IMG/VR virus record: IMGVR_UViG_2740892031_000004 | Direction: 5' to 3' (one strand) | DNA length: 15,282 nt | DNA from: a virus | Taxonomy: Duplodnaviria > Heunggongvirae > Uroviricota > Caudoviricetes | Shown here: positions 103 to 12,978 of the stretch, piece after piece | How positions within the stretch are numbered: position 1 is the first letter of the stretch | How the letters are laid out: every line of letters starts with the position of its first letter | Notes under the pieces: generated by a model | Database searches by the model: none | What the model saw: the letters and a program-made list of their open reading frames with translations, nothing else | What the model was told of the DNA's origin: nothing | Program-made: the position numbers and the translations under genes

Positions 103-429
103 TCAAAGACGTGACGGCGTAAAGATAAATTGTCTCTTCACTCCCTGACAGGGGCGATTCTTTTCAAATCGCCATTTCGCCATGGCCTTCACCACTTCAT
201 CACGAAACAAATTATGAGGCTCTGAGCGGAGAAAAACGATCCGTGTCACAGTCCCATCAGCACCAATATCGAACTTAACCTCAACCAGCCCCTTGATATA
301 ATTTGCTGCAGCATATTCCGGATATCGTGGATACACCGTCACTAATTGCCGGGGCTCATCAGCTTTTTGCTGCGAGCATCCCACTGCCAGGACAGATAAC
401 AGAAAAAGTAGTAAAAGGCGTCTTTTCAT
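103..429 (-). CDS. lipoprotein with TonB C-terminal domain (108 aa)
   Basis: ATG at 427-429 with AGGA 8 nt upstream. N-terminus MKRRLLLLFLLSVLAVGC is a signal peptide with lipobox LAVGC. The remainder matches the TonB_C pattern (VYPRYPEYA...IKGLVEVKFDIGADGTV...FLRSEPHNLFRDEVVKAMAKWRFE). The ORF track extends to a GTG at 483, but the internal ATG with RBS and signal peptide is the better start. Confidence 0.7.
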   Translation of the reverse strand: MKRRLLLLFLLSVLAVGCSQQKADEPRQLVTVYPRYPEYAAANYIKGLVEVKFDIGADGTVTRIVFLRSEPHNLFRDEVVKAMAKWRFEKNRPCQGVKRQFIFTPSRL

Positions 430-739
430 TTTTATTCCTACGGGTCTTATTCTGACAATATATCCTGTGTTCCAGACTGCCACATCACCACATCCTGTGC
501 CATTATCTGACTCACATTACATACATCGCATCGGGATACAGTAGTAGCACTTTCTGTAATACAGCTTCCTGTTTCTTCCACCATCGCACCGGGATAAACC
601 CGCGAATCATTAACGCGGTAAAAACCCGGTGTGCATCGTTTTTAATTATCCCCGCACACTCGCGCAGAGGAGTCTCCCTGTCGGGCTGCGGTCTCTGTTA
701 ATGAGGGAATATAGCGACGATACGGCGCATCAACAAAAC

Positions 740-1213
740 TTATTTCAGGCACTGAGTGCGGATATAGTCCTGTGCCCCTTCCAGTTGCTTGTGCATCGTC
801 ATCAGCCGCTCTCTGAGGGTGAAATAATCCCGTGTAACGGTGTCTGCCAGTTGGGGGCCGGTTGCATTATCCACGCCGGAGGTGGTGGGGGCTTCACGCA
901 CGGAGCCTGGACAGGTGGCGTTGATCCGCAGGCGCTTACGACCAGCGGCAACGTCAGCGCGAAGAGTTTCATTTTCAGCTCTCGCATCGGCTAATTCCCT
1001 CGAGTATTTTGCATCGAGCGCAGCAACATCGCGCTGGCGCACCTGCATATCAGTAATGGTTGCGTTCGCCAGCTTCAGTTCACTGGCTTTGTTATCGCGC
1101 TGCGCTTTGTAGGTAATCGCGTTATCACGGTAATGGTCTGTTGCCATCCACAGCGCACCACAGGCCACCAGCAGAATAACGATAAACGCGGAAAGCATTC
1201 GGTTTATGTTCAC
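740..1213 (-). CDS. Rz: i-spanin Rz (lysis cassette)
   Basis: Translation closely matches recalled lambda Rz ([74 protein letters not shown]). Start ambiguous: GTG at 1211-1213 overlaps the upstream stop, or ATG at 1196-1198. Confidence 0.9.
802..987 (-). CDS. Rz1: o-spanin Rz1, embedded in Rz in the +1 frame
   Basis: [22 protein letters not shown] is a lipoprotein signal with lipobox; the proline-rich [26 protein letters not shown] matches recalled lambda Rz1. Lies entirely inside Rz. Confidence 0.85.
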
Positions 1214-1694: not shown

Positions 1695-2228
1695 TTATCT
1701 GTCGATACCCCAGCACGCCAGCGCGCTCTCCTGGTCACGACGGGATACCTGACCGTAACAGTTGTTTGAACGAATACGGCAGTCTCTGCCACCGTCCTTA
1801 ATCCACCAGCGAATCGCTTCGCAGGCACCTTTTCGATCACCAGCATTAATTCGTCTGTAAAACGTCGACGGGAAACACTTACCGGGACCAATGTTGTACG
1901 GACAGAATGACGCGATCCCCGCTTTCTGGGGTTCGGTCAGCGGCACTCTGATGTTTTTCTCCACCCACGCCAGCGCTTTATCACGCTCAATGGCGTTAAC
2001 CTGGTCGCATTTTTCCTTCGACAACTTCATGCCCGGAACGACAGGTTTGCCATCCACCATGATGGCACCACGGCAGATGGTCCAGATACCTGCACCATCA
2101 CGGTATGCTGTGGTGTGGTTGCCTTCCTTTTCATCCAGAAACTGGTCGAGAATGTCAGGCGCAGGCGCACCAGCGGCAATCAGCGCCAGAACGGCAGCCG
2201 ACAGGCCGTATTTGATTTTGGTGTTCAT
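1695..2228 (-). CDS. R: phage lysozyme (T4-lysozyme / GH24 family) with N-terminal SAR-type hydrophobic segment
   Basis: 177 aa. N-terminal GLSAAVLALIAAGAPA hydrophobic stretch, then a Glu-8aa-Asp-5aa-Thr catalytic signature (DEKEGNHTTAYRDGAGIWTICRG) as in P1 Lyz / R21-type SAR endolysins. ATG at 2226-2228; no obvious SD in the AT-rich 36-nt spacer upstream. Confidence 0.9.
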   Translation of the reverse strand: MNTKIKYGLSAAVLALIAAGAPAPDILDQFLDEKEGNHTTAYRDGAGIWTICRGAIMVDGKPVVPGMKLSKEKCDQVNAIERDKALAWVEKNIRVPLTEPQKAGIASFCPYNIGPGKCFPSTFYRRINAGDRKGACEAIRWWIKDGGRDCRIRSNNCYGQVSRRDQESALACWGIDR

Positions 2229-2264: not shown

Positions 2265-3155
2265 CTAAATACGCACTTTAAGATAAGTCAGCCCCGGATG
2301 AAGCCAGTAAGCCGGCACTTTTTTAAAGGGTGGAGTATTAAAATCACGAAGAAGAGCCTCCCGCACAATTGCATCCTTATCAGCACCACTGGCCAGCGCT
2401 TCAATCTCAGCGGCTACCTGAAGATATCCCATGCAACGGCCAACGCGCTTCATCAGCCCCTGCTTTTTATTGTTCTTCAGGTAATCAATGGCAAATTCAA
2501 TGAGCTCCTCACTGTGCTGGTGCGATGGAGGTGTTACTTTCCCATTTTCTGAGATGGTTATTTTCCCAGCATCACCGGATACAACAAAGGATGGCCGGTT
2601 ACACTCCCATTCCAGCTCACTGAAATTATCATTATGAATACTGAAACACTCTGCGAGATTTCTGCTCATCACTTTCCGACAATAATCGTCAAACGCAGCA
2701 AACTGCTTTTCATCACCAGAAGGCACCAATATCGACCATTTCTTATTCAGCTCAACGACGTAGCTCTCCAGTTTTTCAATACGTGATTCAACATCATCTT
2801 TTTCTGACCGCAGTGTTGACGGCGGCATCTTCAGAGAACAAGTAATTCTTCCCGGTAGCTTTCCTTTGTAGGTTATCAACACATCCTGCGCCTCTAAAAT
2901 TACGGGGCGCTTTTCCGGCAACGGTTCGTTCCATTCACATAACCCGGCAGCAACATCCATGAAAAACTGCTTCGCCTGCTTTTTCGCCTCAGCTTCGTAA
3001 AACTCCAGCGTGGCACCTTCAGTACGGTCAAGACTAATCGCCACATCTGGCAACAACAGCGACGCTTGCCCGTCACCTTCCGGCTTCACAGTAACAGTAA
3101 CCTTATCCCCGTAATTATTTATCCCCTTAACAACCAGTTCATATTTTTTATTCAT
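2265..3155 (-). CDS. hypothetical protein (296 aa) inserted between holin and endolysin; no recognised domain
   Basis: Long clean ORF. ATG at 3153-3155 lies 4 nt after the holin TAA stop (3160-3162), with a GGGGAGAG SD inside the holin 3' end. No signal peptide or transmembrane segment seen. I do not recognise the sequence. Confidence 0.7.
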   Translation of the reverse strand: MNKKYELVVKGINNYGDKVTVTVKPEGDGQASLLLPDVAISLDRTEGATLEFYEAEAKKQAKQFFMDVAAGLCEWNEPLPEKRPVILEAQDVLITYKGKLPGRITCSLKMPPSTLRSEKDDVESRIEKLESYVVELNKKWSILVPSGDEKQFAAFDDYCRKVMSRNLAECFSIHNDNFSELEWECNRPSFVVSGDAGKITISENGKVTPPSHQHSEELIEFAIDYLKNNKKQGLMKRVGRCMGYLQVAAEIEALASGADKDAIVREALLRDFNTPPFKKVPAYWLHPGLTYLKVRI

Positions 3156-3159
3156 CACT

Positions 3160-3375
3160 TTACTCTCCCCGCGCCGCCTTACGCCGGTCCTCTTTGATTT
3201 TGAAATACAGGTTAGTCAGGTACGTCAGCAGCCCAAACAGCAGACTCCCCAGCACGCCTATTGCCGCCCACTGAGACGGGGAAACCCTGTCCAGCAACTG
3301 CAGGAACCAGTAGCCCGTTCCCACCGCTGACGTGGTGTATGACACACCTGTTGTGATTTTTTCCATCTGGTACAT
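3160..3375 (-). CDS. S: class II holin, phage-21 S21 pinholin type, with dual-start motif
   Basis: [71 protein letters not shown] is near-identical in pattern to recalled S21 / EssD. Two in-frame ATGs (3373-3375 and 3364-3366) fit the holin/antiholin dual-start arrangement; GGGAGA SD upstream. Confidence 0.85.
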
Positions 3376-4053: not shown

Positions 4054-6015
4054 TCATGCCGCGATGTCCGCGTTGTTCACTTCCACCTTCACACTGTCAA
4101 TCAGCAGCGTATATGTCGCCGCCTTTGATATGCCTGTCAGTTGCAGTTTGTCCGCCGCCCCTGATGCCGGAGATTTCACCAGTGTGAACGGCGTCCCCCG
4201 TTTCTCATCCAGTACCGGCGTCACCTGAATGCTGTTGTTTCCGGCAAACTCAAAAGCCAGTGTGTGCCATCCGTTATCAAAGACCCCGAACGTATCCAGC
4301 TTCGCATTCGGCTTCTTGTGGTGCATCGCGTTCAGGTTCGTCGCATCCGTCTGCAGGAAGAAGGACATCAGCATGTCGTTGCCTTCCTCTGCCAGCGTCA
4401 CTCCCTCCGGCAGGGACGACAACTGCCAGTAAATGCCCAGGGCAAACTGATTCGGCACCAGTGAACCCGGCAACTTAAACCGTACGCTCACACGTCCCCC
4501 CTTCTTCAGTAACTCCACTCCCTGTCCGGCTGCATCATGCTCCAGAAACCAGATGTGGTTTTCCGGTTTATTCAGTTGCAGGGCCTTACCTCCCGTAGCC
4601 CCCGCATCACTGACCACCGCTTCAGCAATGTTTTTGTTAACATTGTCTCCGCTCGCCGGTTTGTGATAATAGCGCCAGCCCTGTGATGCCAGGTCTTCGC
4701 CGGACGCCAGCAGACTCATCAGGGTTCGGTTACTGACCGGGGCTTCCGGCTCTCTCTCCGTACCTTCACCGGAAGGTCCGGTGGGCTTCACCGTATCAGG
4801 CTGTTTTCCGGTAATGAATTCAGCGTTTCTCCCGGCATGCACAAGAATCGCCGTTGCCAGACGGTCGGAAATAATCCCACGACGTGCCCATGATCCAAAA
4901 TGCGTTTTACGGTCGGCCGTCGTCCAGGTTTTGGCGTCCGTTCGACCACCGGCTCCGTAATACCCAATATCCGCAACATCCGGATCTTCTGACGGCTCGT
5001 TGGTACCCACATTTCGCCCGTTTTCATCCGTCATAAACGGCACAAAGAAGATTTTTTTTGCGGATTTCGTCTTGTATGCACCATACACCGCATCGTATTG
5101 CGAAGAATAAGTCTGCTTCCAGTAGTAGGTCGTGTCGCCACAAATCCAGGGAACCGATGACGGAGAGCCCCCGAGACACTGACCTCCGAATTCCGACAGG
5201 TCAGAACGATATTTTTCCACCATGGAATCAAACAGCCCCGGCTGAGTGGCGTATGCACCCTGTTTCAAATCAAACTCGCCCTGCATCCAGACCACTGCAA
5301 GCAGAATATTTTTAGGGTTGGCCTTCAGTGCGGCCTGAGTACGGGTAAGCAGGTCCTTGTACAGTGGCTTATCAACACCCCAGCGTGCCGAGGTCTCGCT
5401 TGCGCTGGTGGATTCGCTGAAGGTACCTTCATCGCCCGCCAAAAATGCAGAACCACCACGGCAGCACGGAACCAGAAGAATACCGGCATTCGCCGGAATA
5501 AACGGCAACAATTTCTTCGCGATATGTAATCCCTGCCCCACGCATCCATACTGAGCTGCGCTGGCTTTCGGGTGTGAAAACTTACTCAAATCCTGAACAT
5601 CATGCAGGCAGTGGTCCGCAGGAATAATGTCATTGTAGTTACAGGACGCACCACCCGGCGTGACAGTGCTGCGACGCGCCAGCTGTTTAATACGCGGGTC
5701 CGGACGGTCATATGTCTCCGGCAGCGGAAGCCCTTCACCATACGCCATACCGTTTGACCGCCCGGCTAGGGCAACAACAAAGTAATACTCCGGGTTGCTG
5801 GTGGTGCTGATAACTGCGCCTTCTCCATCCGACGGCTTCACCACCACAGGTGTGGTGACATCACCTTCCGCCGCAATGGCCTGCATCAGGGTATAAGGCG
5901 TGATGGCCACCGGACTGCCAAATGGCTGCCACCCCTCCTTCAGTTTTTGTGTCAGTCGTTTCGCAAGGTCTGACGGCGATGCCGCCCTGACAACATCATA
6001 GTGTTTAAATGCCAT
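4054..6015 (-). CDS. nanS-p: prophage NanS-p-type sialate O-acetylesterase (DUF1737 N-terminus plus SASA esterase region)
   Basis: 653 aa from ATG at 6013-6015 (ORF track gives 658 aa from 6030, which lacks an SD). N-terminus MAFKHYDVV...EGWQPFGSPV matches the DUF1737 pattern seen in the large yjhS/nanS-like proteins downstream of stx in EHEC prophages. Same position relative to Q and S as in Stx phages. Confidence 0.75.
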   Translation of the reverse strand: MAFKHYDVVRAASPSDLAKRLTQKLKEGWQPFGSPVAITPYTLMQAIAAEGDVTTPVVVKPSDGEGAVISTTSNPEYYFVVALAGRSNGMAYGEGLPLPETYDRPDPRIKQLARRSTVTPGGASCNYNDIIPADHCLHDVQDLSKFSHPKASAAQYGCVGQGLHIAKKLLPFIPANAGILLVPCCRGGSAFLAGDEGTFSESTSASETSARWGVDKPLYKDLLTRTQAALKANPKNILLAVVWMQGEFDLKQGAYATQPGLFDSMVEKYRSDLSEFGGQCLGGSPSSVPWICGDTTYYWKQTYSSQYDAVYGAYKTKSAKKIFFVPFMTDENGRNVGTNEPSEDPDVADIGYYGAGGRTDAKTWTTADRKTHFGSWARRGIISDRLATAILVHAGRNAEFITGKQPDTVKPTGPSGEGTEREPEAPVSNRTLMSLLASGEDLASQGWRYYHKPASGDNVNKNIAEAVVSDAGATGGKALQLNKPENHIWFLEHDAAGQGVELLKKGGRVSVRFKLPGSLVPNQFALGIYWQLSSLPEGVTLAEEGNDMLMSFFLQTDATNLNAMHHKKPNAKLDTFGVFDNGWHTLAFEFAGNNSIQVTPVLDEKRGTPFTLVKSPASGAADKLQLTGISKAATYTLLIDSVKVEVNNADIAA

Positions 6016-7980: not shown

Positions 7981-8340
7981 TCACTCACTCTCAATTTTGT
8001 AAATCTTCACACCCAGCCGTCCACCAGATACTGGCTGACCACGTACAATATTGATTTCATCAAACTGCTCATCGTCCATTAACACTCCCGCATGCGTCAG
8101 CGCATCCAGCGGTGCTTTCAGGATATTGTCCAGGTCGCGACGACGCTTATCCGGTGGCTCTGCAATCACCTTTATCGCCAGCCTTCCGGACAGGCTTAAT
8201 TTCAGCCGCTGCTGGCGAACAATAAGCGCCACAGCCCGGCGATAACGCTTTCCCTCCTCCGAGATAAAATATGTGCTGCCACGGCGTCGCCAGTAAGTGT
8301 TCACCGTCGGCGGGTAAGGTAAAACCAAATCTATGAGCAT
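7981..8340 (-). CDS. rusA: Holliday-junction resolvase RusA
   Basis: 119 aa; core motifs match recalled E. coli RusA (PDKRRRDLDNILKAPLDALTHAGVLMDDEQ vs [30 protein letters not shown]; GGRL near the C-terminus). Confidence 0.9.
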   Translation of the reverse strand: MLIDLVLPYPPTVNTYWRRRGSTYFISEEGKRYRRAVALIVRQQRLKLSLSGRLAIKVIAEPPDKRRRDLDNILKAPLDALTHAGVLMDDEQFDEINIVRGQPVSGGRLGVKIYKIESE

Positions 8341-8352
8341 CAGTCACCTCTT

Positions 8353-9402
8353 TTACCCAAGCACGCCAGTTGCAAAGGCGTGATCAAGAAAACGAAAAAT
8401 TAAATCAACCTGAGAACCATGCTTTTCTTCGAACGCCAGAGGATCCGCATGAAGCTCGTTGTGATGCTCCCGACACAGCGGTAGCGTGAAAATATCGTGA
8501 GATTTTGTCCCCATTCCGCCCTGACCATGACCAATCAGGTGATGGGGATCGTCGGCTGGCTTACCACAACACGCACACGGCTGTGTCTTCACCCAGCGTT
8601 TGTATTTCTCGTTAACCCAGCGGCGACGTTTAGGTCGTTTCATGAAAGATTCCGGAGACTCAGGATCAACGGCAATGCTGACCACCGTCTTTTCCTGTGG
8701 TGGGTTCTGTTGCTGGTGGGCGTGAGGCAGCGGCGCAATATTTTTTGTGCGCTGTTTCAGTATGCTGGTGGCGGTCTGCTCTCCCGGTACGATGTCGCTT
8801 TCACGGTACATTGAGCGGATTTTTTCCGCACGCAACCCCAGCGAACGACGTAATACCACTTCCGGTAGCGCGTCCGCCACCTGATTGCGGACCGCCCACC
8901 AGGATAATTCAGCCAGAGATAATTCACGCTCCTGCGTACCGCTTATTGCGTGACCGATGACGTCAATCATCCATGCTGACAGGTTTTGATGAGCAAGTTG
9001 CTCGAGTGATTCGGATGTCTGGTCACGCAGCTGGTTATCGCAGTGCCAGCACAACACCATTGCGCCGGTACCATAACGGTGAATGACGGTTTCGCTGTGA
9101 TGATAATCGCCGTGTGGCCACTGGCAGGATTTAATATGGCGCAACAGCCAGTCAGACAATGCACCAGCACCACCAGCAGCACGAATCACCCGTGCGTTAC
9201 TGAAAAACGGCAGCAATGTTTTGTCTTCCACCAGCGGCTGGCGAGCGGCAGGAACGACCCCGGACGGCAGATTACGCATGCTTTTCGGTTCCGGCTCCAC
9301 CAGTAACCGGGTATTGTGGAATACCGGCATGGATTCACGGCCCGGCTTAACGATCACCAGCCCGAGTTCCGGTACCAGAACAGATCGAAGTAATACCCGC
9401 AC
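8353..9402 (-). CDS. DUF968-family phage protein (YdfU-like) with C-terminal HNH/zinc-finger-like motif
   Basis: 349 aa (GTG start at 9402; alternative ATG at 9328-9330). C-terminal CACCGK...DPHHLIGHG...CREHHNELH is an HNH-like Cys/His cluster. Size and position (between rem-like and Q) match Qin-prophage ydfU. Confidence 0.75.
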   Translation of the reverse strand: MRVLLRSVLVPELGLVIVKPGRESMPVFHNTRLLVEPEPKSMRNLPSGVVPAARQPLVEDKTLLPFFSNARVIRAAGGAGALSDWLLRHIKSCQWPHGDYHHSETVIHRYGTGAMVLCWHCDNQLRDQTSESLEQLAHQNLSAWMIDVIGHAISGTQERELSLAELSWWAVRNQVADALPEVVLRRSLGLRAEKIRSMYRESDIVPGEQTATSILKQRTKNIAPLPHAHQQQNPPQEKTVVSIAVDPESPESFMKRPKRRRWVNEKYKRWVKTQPCACCGKPADDPHHLIGHGQGGMGTKSHDIFTLPLCREHHNELHADPLAFEEKHGSQVDLIFRFLDHAFATGVLG

Positions 9403-11749: not shown

Positions 11750-12115
11750 ATGATTGATGTCTTAGGGCCGGAGAAACGCAGACGGCGTACCACACAGGAA
11801 AAGATCGCAATTGTTCAGCAGAGCTTTGAACCGGGGATGACGGTCTCCCTCGTTGCCCGGCAACATGGTGTAGCAGCCAGCCAGTTATTTCTCTGGCGTA
11901 AGCAATACCAGGAAGGAAGTCTTACTGCTGTCGCCGCCGGAGAACAGGTTGTTCCTGCCTCTGAACTTGCTGCCGCCATGAAGCAGATTAAAGAACTCCA
12001 GCGCCTGCTCGGCAAGAAAACGATGGAAAATGAACTCCTCAAAGAAGCCGTTGAATATGGACGGGCAAAAAAGTGGATAGCGCACGCGCCCTTATTGCCC
12101 GGGGATGGGGAGTAA
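11750..12115 (+). CDS. insC: IS2 OrfA (InsC)
   Basis: 121 aa, [40 protein letters not shown]... matches recalled InsC. ORF track starts at an upstream GTG (11705). Confidence 0.9.
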
Positions 12116-12978
12116 GCTTAGTCAGCCGTTGTCTCCGGGTGTCGCGTGCGCAGTTGCACGTCATTCTCAGACGAACCGATGACTGGATGGATGGCCGCCG
12201 CAGTCGTCACACTGATGATACGGATGTGCTTCTCCGTATACACCATGTTATCGGAGAGCTGCCCACGTATGGTTATCGTCGGGTATGGGCGCTGCTTCGC
12301 AGACAGGCAGAACTTGATGGTATGCCTGCGATCAATGCCAAACGTGTTTACCGGATCATGCGCCAGAATGCGCTGTTGCTTGAGCGAAAACCTGCTGTAC
12401 CGCCATCGAAACGGGCACATACAGGCAGAGTGGCCGTGAAAGAAAGCAATCAGCGATGGTGCTCTGACGGGTTCGAGTTCTGCTGTGATAACGGAGAGAG
12501 ACTGCGTGTCACGTTCGCGCTGGACTGCTGTGATCGTGAGGCACTGCACTGGGCGGTCACTACCGGCGGCTTCAACAGTGAAACAGTACAGGACGTCATG
12601 CTGGGAGCGGTGGAACGCCGCTTCGGCAACGATCTTCCGTCGTCTCCAGTGGAGTGGCTGACGGATAATGGTTCATGCTACCGGGCTAATGAAACACGCC
12701 AGTTCGCCCGGATGTTGGGACTTGAACCGAAGAACACGGCGGTGCGGAGTCCGGAGAGTAACGGAATAGCAGAGAGCTTCGTGAAAACGATAAAGCGTGA
12801 CTACATCAGTATCATGCCCAAACCAGACGGGTTAACGGCAGCAAAGAACCTTGCAGAGGCGTTCGAGCATTATAACGAATGGCATCCGCATAGTGCGCTG
12901 GGTTATCGCTCGCCACGGGAATATCTGCGGCAGCGGGCTTGTAATGGGTTAAGTGATAACAGATGTCTGGAAATATAG
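12073..12978 (+). CDS. insD: IS2 OrfB transposase (InsD), DDE-type
   Basis: 301 aa, [34 protein letters not shown]... matches recalled InsD; overlaps insC as expected for the frameshift-fused IS3-family transposase. Confidence 0.9.

Follow-up and report, generated by a model that had tools for sequence, protein, structure and literature searches.

The small lipoproteins Llp of phage T5 and Cor of phages phi80 and N15 are located in the outer membrane, where they engage a TonB-dependent receptor at its periplasmic face, blocking FhuA, the receptor of their own phage (PMC11436027 and bioRxiv 10.64898/2026.03.26.714494). Bor and Iss are likewise small outer membrane lipoproteins, encoded by moron genes that close the lysis region and are expressed in lysogens. 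Among laboratory constructs, periplasmic fragments of TonB, which contain the TonB domain without the energy-coupling part, are dominant negative and inhibit FhuA- and FecA-dependent transport (Howard et al. 2001), and TonB-box peptides lower killing by colicins and infection by phi80 (Tuckman 1992), both as cited in PMC9841981. Here, the gene at positions 103-429 of a 15,282-nucleotide stretch of DNA from a virus of the class Caudoviricetes (IMG/VR record IMGVR_UViG_2740892031_000004; the whole stretch is called the window) was analyzed computationally. Its 108-amino-acid product, referred to as the TonB_C protein, carries a lipoprotein signal shortly ahead of a near-complete TonB C-terminal domain, and it may serve as a decoy in TonB-dependent import.

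The TonB_C protein shares with the C-terminal domain of Escherichia coli TonB (1U07 and 1XX3; 2GSK with BtuB and 2GRX with FhuA) the fold and its boundaries, the YP motif and the aromatic core, and differs from TonB in lacking the ExbB/ExbD anchor and the proline-rich rod, in its predicted lipid anchor in the outer membrane instead of the inner membrane, in changes at R158, Q160, Q162, and R166, and in the absence of the last four TonB residues. Like the laboratory fragments, it is a TonB domain without the energy-coupling part; unlike them, it is natural and phage-borne, diverged in sequence, and predicted to be lipid-anchored in the outer membrane. Kinship with Llp and Cor was not detected in sequence or fold, and whereas these two block a single receptor, the TonB_C protein would hit the shared TonB step. 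Bor and Iss are neighbors with an unrelated fold, encoded on the opposite strand, and both genes are often present together. A comparable design, lipobox plus the C-terminal domain of a transducer on a mobile element, occurs in TolA_C lipoproteins of Klebsiella plasmids and of phage mEp460_ev081, sometimes 3 to 5 kb from a TonB_C gene; these differ in their domain (PF06519), in a linker of about 40 residues, and in their presumed target, the Tol pathway.

Lipoprotein signal and TonB C-terminal domain

The open reading frame (ORF) comprises 108 codons on the minus strand, from an ATG at 429-427 to a stop codon at 105-103, with an AGGA Shine-Dalgarno sequence 6 nucleotides (nt) ahead of the start (Table 1). 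The N-terminus of the product, MKRRLLLLFLLSVLAVGC, was recognized as a signal peptide with a lipobox, in which the charged n-region MKRR and the 12-residue hydrophobic core LLLLFLLSVLAV are followed by Gly and the lipobox residue Cys18, in agreement with the PROSITE-style lipoprotein pattern. A Cys preceded by Gly or Ala is retained in homologs of 35 to 85% identity from E. coli, Klebsiella, Serratia, and Rahnella. Residue +2 of the lipobox is Ser and not Asp, so that sorting to the outer membrane is predicted by the Lol "+2 rule"; lipidation and location are both predictions from this sequence rule. The tether between Cys18 and the domain is seven residues long (SQQKADE). The window protein differs from the common allele WP_000830178.1 in the last residue only, with L108 here and P108 there, and the gene is 99.7% identical at the nucleotide level to that of strain Nissle 1917.

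The first-pass annotation of the window had described a lipoprotein with a TonB C-terminal domain and had quoted the motif YP...A...I.G.V.V.FDI..DG.V...S.P...F...V..A...WRF, which is present in the protein. Searched against Pfam, residues 33-99 matched PF03544 (TonB_C) with an E value of 7.3e-13 and 49.2 bits (cut-off, 24.6), and TIGR01352 (tonB_Cterm) was matched with 47.4 bits (cut-off, 27.1). In a phmmer search of PDB sequences, E. coli TonB (1u07, 1xx3, 2gsk, and 2grx) was found at E values of about 1e-14. Residues 23-103 align without gaps to TonB 150-230, with 33 of the 81 positions identical (40.7%). The AlphaFold2 model, built with 25 homologs, reached block means of about 97 to 98 in the predicted local distance difference test (pLDDT) over residues 31-100, and 80 of the 108 residues had values of at least 90. 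Superposed by Foldseek on PDB structures, it matched the C-terminal domain of E. coli TonB, including the BtuB- and FhuA-bound chains, with template modeling (TM) scores of 0.90 to 0.94 and root mean square deviations (rmsd) of 0.8 to 1.4 Å (2gsk_B, TM 0.94 and rmsd 1.0; 2grx_C, rmsd 0.8; 1u07 was also matched). Since profiles, PDB alignment, model, and superposition agree, a TonB-domain lipoprotein gene at this locus is confirmed, with a likeness far beyond chance.

The elements of the model follow the order short strand, helix, strand, strand, helix, strand, with five residues after the last strand; there is no fourth long strand and no strand beyond the long final one, which in TonB is the edge that pairs with the Ton box (2GSK and 2GRX). 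The domain is equivalent to TonB 145-235 and includes all 81 residues of the TonB chain in the BtuB:TonB complex, and the last TonB residues, 236-239, have no counterpart. The TonB core residues P161, Y163, P164, G174, F180, D181, G186, F202, W213, and F230 are retained; the YP motif and aromatic core of the phage protein (Y36-P37, F53, F75, W86, and F103) vary little or not at all across the family alignments.

The protein is not a TonB energy transducer. As the first-pass annotation had stated, the membrane anchor and the proline-rich region of TonB are missing: the signal is the sole strongly hydrophobic stretch (Kyte-Doolittle value of 3.2, whereas the C-terminal part does not exceed 0.46), no part of TonB before residue 150 is aligned, and there is neither an uncleaved anchor for ExbB/ExbD coupling nor a proline-rich periplasm-spanning spacer. 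Scores against the NCBIfam equivalogs NF008081-NF008084 (cut-offs of 265 to 448 bits) were at best 69 bits against the 315 needed, and covered the last third of the profile only.

Over its full length the protein falls in phrog_1267 (E value of 2.1e-42), a family labeled "Rz-like spanin" in PHROGs, and the gene always stands right after the spanin genes on the strand of the late operon, as would be expected of a spanin or a lysis accessory protein. Its architecture was compared with that of i-spanins (N-terminal membrane segment and coiled coil), proline-rich o-spanins, and u-spanins (lipobox and C-terminal membrane segment), and the globular TonB_C fold without a C-terminal hydrophobic or membrane segment fits none of them. 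Rz and Rz1 are both present and intact upstream in the window, and the spanin label is therefore wrong. A lysis function is very improbable, and the expression pattern and the homologs described below argue against it as well. The label of phrog_1267 looks like a positional misannotation that could propagate into phage genome annotations.

Membership in other known lipoprotein families was also rejected. TonB_C was the sole Pfam hit and the Bor family was not matched, and in Nissle 1917 and phage 21 a separate iss/bor gene adjoins the TonB_C gene. Searches of Pfam, NCBIfam, PHROGs, and PDB folds gave TonB-type matches only, the significant families being TonB_C and phrog_1267, and no kinship with Cor or Llp was detected. 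In the BFVD library of viral structures, no significant match was found.

Distribution and genomic position

Of 5426 complete E. coli genomes, 1225 (about 23%) carry the gene, with an identity of 99% or higher in 1203. The window itself is 99.8% identical to a lambdoid prophage beside potB in E. coli strain B2.3. The gene and its likeness to TonB are already in public annotation: it is named "TonB family protein" by RefSeq across E. coli genomes, "TonB C-terminal domain protein" in phage 21, and, in older annotation, "partial tonB-like membrane protein" in the O157 prophage CP-933N and likewise in phage ev017. It is also carried by phage Perceval and by several ECOR-derived phages, and an allele of 72% identity is present in Stx1a phages and in JLK-2012.

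Gene order was compared in 84 loci, mostly IMG/VR contigs, and was the same in all of them: Rz, bor/iss in the opposite orientation (about 46 loci have it and about 33 lack it), the TonB_C gene, a 60-amino-acid ORF, and the terminase genes. The first-pass annotation had placed the gene at the end of the lysis cassette, where lambda carries bor and other phages carry cor. The first part of this placement holds; the gene does not occupy the bor slot itself, since in phage 21, in Nissle 1917, and in about 46 of the 84 loci Rz and the TonB_C gene are separated by bor/iss, which makes the gene a neighbor of bor and not its replacement. The window is without bor because, compared with Nissle 1917, about 500 bp are deleted (window 430-740 versus 8195-9000 of the Nissle locus L001). 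The cor gene is usually found near tail-fiber genes and not at the post-lysis position. svsR, the published exclusion determinant of the same prophage family, sits at cI and not at the TonB_C gene.

In phage 21 and in the Nissle and NC101 prophages, the genome with the TonB_C gene also contains sitABCD, which encodes iron/manganese uptake independent of TonB (L098, 21967-25416, in phage 21; L099, 14461-17910, in the Nissle 1917 prophage at icd), as well as iss and a gene for an ompC-like porin. The linkage to sitABCD is not obligatory, as the prophage of the window has lom and no sitABCD.

Selection and expression in the lysogen

Between the two E. coli alleles, synonymous divergence (dS) was about 1.4, and the ratio of nonsynonymous to synonymous divergence (dN/dS) was 0.135 overall and 0.107 within the domain. 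The gene is under purifying selection. The lipoprotein signal, which is foreign to TonB, is retained in homologs of 35 to 47% identity.

Transcription was assessed in a published RNA-seq comparison between strain NC101 and a derivative from which the phage-21-like prophage at icd is deleted (PMC12803456). In the supplementary table of that study, the NC101 gene "TonB family protein", located between iss and a hypothetical gene and equated with the window gene by synteny, had a log fold change of -9.9 in the deletion relative to the wild type, a value that serves as a proxy for expression level and was obtained from cells 10 min into infection by an unrelated phage. It ranked fifth among the prophage genes listed, level with an immunity-region regulator and above the integrase, ompC, iss, and sitABCD genes, while terminase, head, and most tail genes were not among the genes listed and a single gene of the lysis interval was detected. 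This ranking indicates that the gene is transcribed in the lysogenic state and not merely within the late operon. For a lysis protein the pattern would be difficult to explain, as its syntenic gene is on in the lysogen together with one gene of the lysis interval and with no terminase or head gene.

The same data bear on the view that the gene is a functionless remnant of a host tonB fragment captured by a phage. The designation as a partial tonB-like protein in CP-933N and ev017 accords with such an origin, and truncated copies do exist (P0035). A remnant is nevertheless very improbable in view of a dN/dS of 0.13, the gain of a lipoprotein signal foreign to TonB and its retention at 35 to 45% identity across genera, the expression of the gene, and its conservation at 99% or more in the 1203 genomes.

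Homologs on other mobile elements

An exhaustive profile search yielded 2787 proteins at E values of 0.001 or lower, mostly true TonBs or multidomain proteins. A subset of proteins of 100 to 135 residues aligned from residue 1 and had a lipobox or an ordinary signal peptide. The same slot after the spanin genes and ahead of the terminase genes was occupied in five phage backbones with differing endolysins and terminases, and homologs of 35 to 47% identity hold the post-lysis slot in prophages of Klebsiella, Serratia, Rahnella, and Salmonella, for example in Klebsiella phage ST13-OXA48phi12.4, a Serratia montpellierensis prophage, a Rahnella prophage, and a plasmid-borne Salmonella prophage. 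In an Arsenophonus phage-plasmid, the TonB_C gene lies near the J tail-fiber gene.

In two settings outside phages, TonB_C genes were linked to bacteriocin genes. In Serratia, a TonB_C gene with a signal peptide is followed on the same strand by a colicin E1-type immunity gene, and both are convergent with a gene for a pore-forming colicin (Table 1), so that the TonB_C gene shares the strand of immunity and not that of colicin and lysis. The trio follows different neighbors on a chromosome, on a contig resembling a plasmid, and on a conjugative plasmid, and hence moves as a unit; five more Serratia plasmids carry a close homolog, matched by homology and not by neighborhood. In Klebsiella IncF plasmids, the gene for a TonB_C lipoprotein is followed by one for an Exc2-family lipoprotein and faces a cloacin-immunity gene, beside which lies a remnant of a cloacin-type ribonuclease gene truncated by an insertion sequence. 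This arrangement spans 5956-7717 of L101 (NZ_CP073792.1) and is identical in L111, with an HlyD/ABC exporter pair nearby. The occurrence of homologs in colicin operons, on plasmids, and in chromosomes is a further argument against a lysis function.

Chromosomal homologs were found in Erwinia and further bacteria beside unrelated genes. Their contexts are among the observations that favor another role in the envelope or in host interaction, with a partner such as peptidoglycan or an outer membrane protein and an effect on envelope stability, serum resistance, or colonization, as for Bor and Iss. The TonB C-terminal domain has been reported to bind peptidoglycan. The gene is expressed in the lysogen and adjoins iss/bor, and the prophages of phage 21 and Nissle type also contain the ompC-like porin gene and sitABCD. 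A role of this kind is unlikely, though, because the protein has no similarity to Bor and TonB_C as its only Pfam hit, and because the Ton pathway is indicated both by how closely, and without gaps, the protein resembles the domain with which enterobacterial TonB binds receptors and by its recurrent association with bacteriocin genes.

A parallel family of lipoproteins carries the C-terminal domain of TolA. On the Pantoea dispersa IncFIB plasmid NZ_CP045217.1, a lipobox protein of 144 amino acids matched PF06519 with an E value of 5e-24, and its gene (L108, 5348-5782) lies 5 kb from the TonB_C gene of the same plasmid. Relatives were found on 739 plasmids, mostly from Klebsiella, and lie 3 to 5 kb from a TonB_C gene in at least four. 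The lambdoid phage mEp460_ev081 carries a lipobox-TolA_C gene for 142 amino acids between Q and the holin gene (L109, 4989-5417). These lipoproteins are annotated simply as "TolA".

Proposed decoy mechanism

The best-supported mechanism, put forward tentatively and already suggested by the first-pass annotation, is a decoy that blocks TonB-dependent import. The gene would be a lysogenic-conversion ("moron") gene, and the seven-residue tether of its product would place a stand-alone TonB domain beside the periplasmic face of TonB-dependent transporters, where it would compete with host TonB for TonB-box strands by β-strand addition. The strands targeted could be the TonB boxes of the transporters, those that group B colicins and toxins like them present on entry, or both; bacteriocins, microcins, and phages such as T1 and phi80 would then enter the cell less efficiently by the TonB-dependent route. 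Lacking an anchor for ExbB/ExbD coupling and a periplasm-spanning rod, the protein cannot transduce energy. It may bind TonB boxes and may confer protection. A decoy is favored by the extent of the domain, which takes in all that is resolved of TonB in the transporter complexes, by its retained core, by the lack of a strand beyond the edge strand in the model, and by the inhibition known from periplasmic TonB fragments and TonB-box peptides. Placement in the colicin modules next to the immunity genes and on their strand agrees with a protective role. New support from this work consists of expression in the lysogen, purifying selection, homologs in colicin/immunity modules, and the parallel TolA family; the conserved slot across phage types is also new here.

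Several observations weigh against such a decoy. Residues R158, Q160, Q162, and R166 of E. coli TonB, whose side chains have been implicated in contact with receptors, are replaced by T, Y, R, and Y. Saturation of TonB boxes would need much protein, as the transporters greatly outnumber TonB. Carriers in which the gene is expressed include siderophore-dependent B2 strains (Nissle 1917 and NC101), to which a strong TonB block would be costly. Among the NC101 genes listed, exbB, fhuE, and fhuA showed small, nonsignificant changes and there was no clear shift of the Fur regulon, a comparison that is confounded by sitABCD. The import route of the Serratia colicin is ambiguous, since it contains both a ColA_N domain (residues 65-106) and, near its N-terminus, the motif DSMTV (residues 18-22), which resembles a TonB box. 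Some distant homologs are in ordinary chromosomal contexts. The known defense systems in PADLOC gave no match, and no functional study of the 108-amino-acid protein was found in a literature search; it is also absent from reviews on superinfection exclusion and on how TonB and TolA evolved. Because a strong block would burden siderophore-dependent carriers and the Fur-regulon genes of NC101 barely change, a weak or selective action seems more likely than a general shutdown; it could, for example, be directed at TonB boxes that incoming colicins expose on the inner side of the outer membrane.

Two variants of the exclusion reading were weighed beside the decoy. The lipoprotein could instead heterodimerize with the C-terminal domain of host TonB and hold TonB at the outer membrane, producing the same phenotype through the scarcer partner; C-terminal TonB fragments homodimerize in vivo and form dimers in crystals (1ihr and 1u07, both among the PDB matches). 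TonB is limiting relative to the transporters (PMC9841981), and such a trap would consequently need less protein than saturation of TonB boxes. It is improbable, given that identity to E. coli TonB is just 40.7%, that residues 236-239 have no counterpart, and that titration of TonB would be costliest to those hosts that express the gene and depend on siderophores. A cor-type self-exclusion is unlikely, because phage 21 uses LamB as its receptor and not a TonB-dependent one. In PMC12803456, phage 21 is cited in the context of LamB, the lambda receptor.

Taken together with the TolA_C lipoproteins, the decoy reading allows a wider and more speculative one. It is possible, if rather doubtful, that secreted or lipid-anchored copies of TonB and TolA domains on enterobacterial (Enterobacterales) mobile elements, namely, temperate phages, colicin operons, and conjugative plasmids, form an "import-decoy" layer of immunity. 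Equally doubtful as part of this reading, the decoys would intercept the TonB-box or TolA-binding segments of bacteriocins and some phages, a defense at the energy-coupling step and not at the receptor or the target.

Lysis region and upstream DNA

The genes in the window follow the order of a phage-21-type holin, a DUF1327 gene, the endolysin, Rz with embedded Rz1, and the TonB_C gene (Table 1). The DUF1327 gene, between holin and endolysin, is an ORF of 297 amino acids at 2265-3158 on the minus strand with the domain at its N-terminus; at this position the RefSeq annotation of strain B2.3 has merely a partial "YdfR family" pseudogene.

Table 1. Coordinates of features in the window and of the Serratia colicin module
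Feature	Position	Strand	Evidence and remarks
TonB_C lipoprotein coding sequence, 108 amino acids	103..429	-	ORF and translation; RefSeq "TonB family protein"
Signal peptide and lipobox, codons 1-18	376..429	-	Pattern match, hydropathy
Tether, residues 19-25	355..375	-	TonB alignment begins at residue 23; block mean pLDDT rises from 57 (residues 11-20) to 85 (21-30)
TonB C-terminal domain, residues 26-103 (TonB 153-230)	121..354	-	Profiles, alignment, model
Shine-Dalgarno sequence AGGA	436..439	-	Read from the sequence; ribosome-binding site marked in the phage 21 annotation
Upstream DNA of the TonB_C module	430..566	-	Missing from lambdoid phages without the gene; 100% identical to Nissle
Candidate extended -10 element TGTCAGAAT	449..457	-	Relaxed scan; the 72%-identity allele has TGTTAGAAT there
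Noncoding backbone element downstream of Rz, about 165 nt	567..730	-	Also in phages without the TonB_C gene
Rz i-spanin	740..1213	-	Pfam Phage_lysis, E=2e-47
Rz1 o-spanin, inside Rz	802..987	-	Pfam Rz1, E=4e-20
Endolysin	1695..2228	-	Pfam Phage_lysozyme, E=2e-24
Class II holin, phage 21 S type	3160..3375	-	Pfam Phage_holin_2_1, E=7e-33
Serratia module (TonB_C, immunity, colicin)	L089/L090 5001-7510; L091 5001-7447; L103 5001-7498

Homology to Stx2_95, an Stx2 phage without the gene, stops near window position 567, which marks the upstream edge of the TonB_C module. The noncoding element beyond this edge is about 95% conserved among the window, Nissle 1917, the loci with the 72%-identity allele, and the Stx2 phage, much better than the neighboring coding sequence. 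A structured RNA was not detected in the element, which had no Rfam match and a folding energy no better than that of shuffled sequences (z=0.18).

Since expression is seen in the lysogen, a promoter is needed. A stricter consensus scan detected no sigma-70 promoter on the strand of the gene and no terminator after it, and TGTCAGAAT, found with relaxed settings, is a candidate only. The motif ATTGT[CT]AGAATAAGAC is kept within otherwise diverged upstream DNA. Control by Fur was not indicated: no Fur box was found in the window, and the best upstream match had 8 mismatches in 19 positions, the same as shuffled sequence. A perfect palindrome, AGAATAAGACTTATTCT, lies upstream of the 72%-identity allele (L077, about 5960-5985), overlapping the candidate -10 element; it agrees with the Fur-box consensus in 13 of 19 positions, no more than chance would allow, and does not occur in the window allele.

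Just upstream of the TonB_C gene, a doubtful ORF of 45 amino acids (447-584, minus strand) is a coding sequence in the phage 21 annotation; it has no Pfam or other family match, lies in a region not conserved in the variant allele, and is unlikely to be a true gene. IS2 (IS3 family) is inserted at about 11750-12978, within the early region, and RefSeq marks pseudogenes on its flanks in the matching genome. The prophage of the window is probably defective.

Implications for TonB-dependent import

If the decoy mechanism is true, a single prophage protein of 108 amino acids would alter the sensitivity of its host to a whole class of TonB-dependent agents, comprising colicins B, D, Ia/Ib, and M, several microcins, T1- and phi80-type phages, and siderophore-linked antibiotics. 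With about 23% of complete E. coli genomes as carriers, among them Nissle 1917 and many extraintestinal pathogenic lineages, this would bear on bacteriocin competition in the gut, on host range in phage therapy, and on "Trojan horse" siderophore drugs. The dominant-negative trick of the laboratory constructs would then occur in nature, and its TolA counterpart may be very common on Klebsiella plasmids. Exclusion and immunity by an envelope lipoprotein of a mobile element would in this case target energy coupling instead of one particular receptor.

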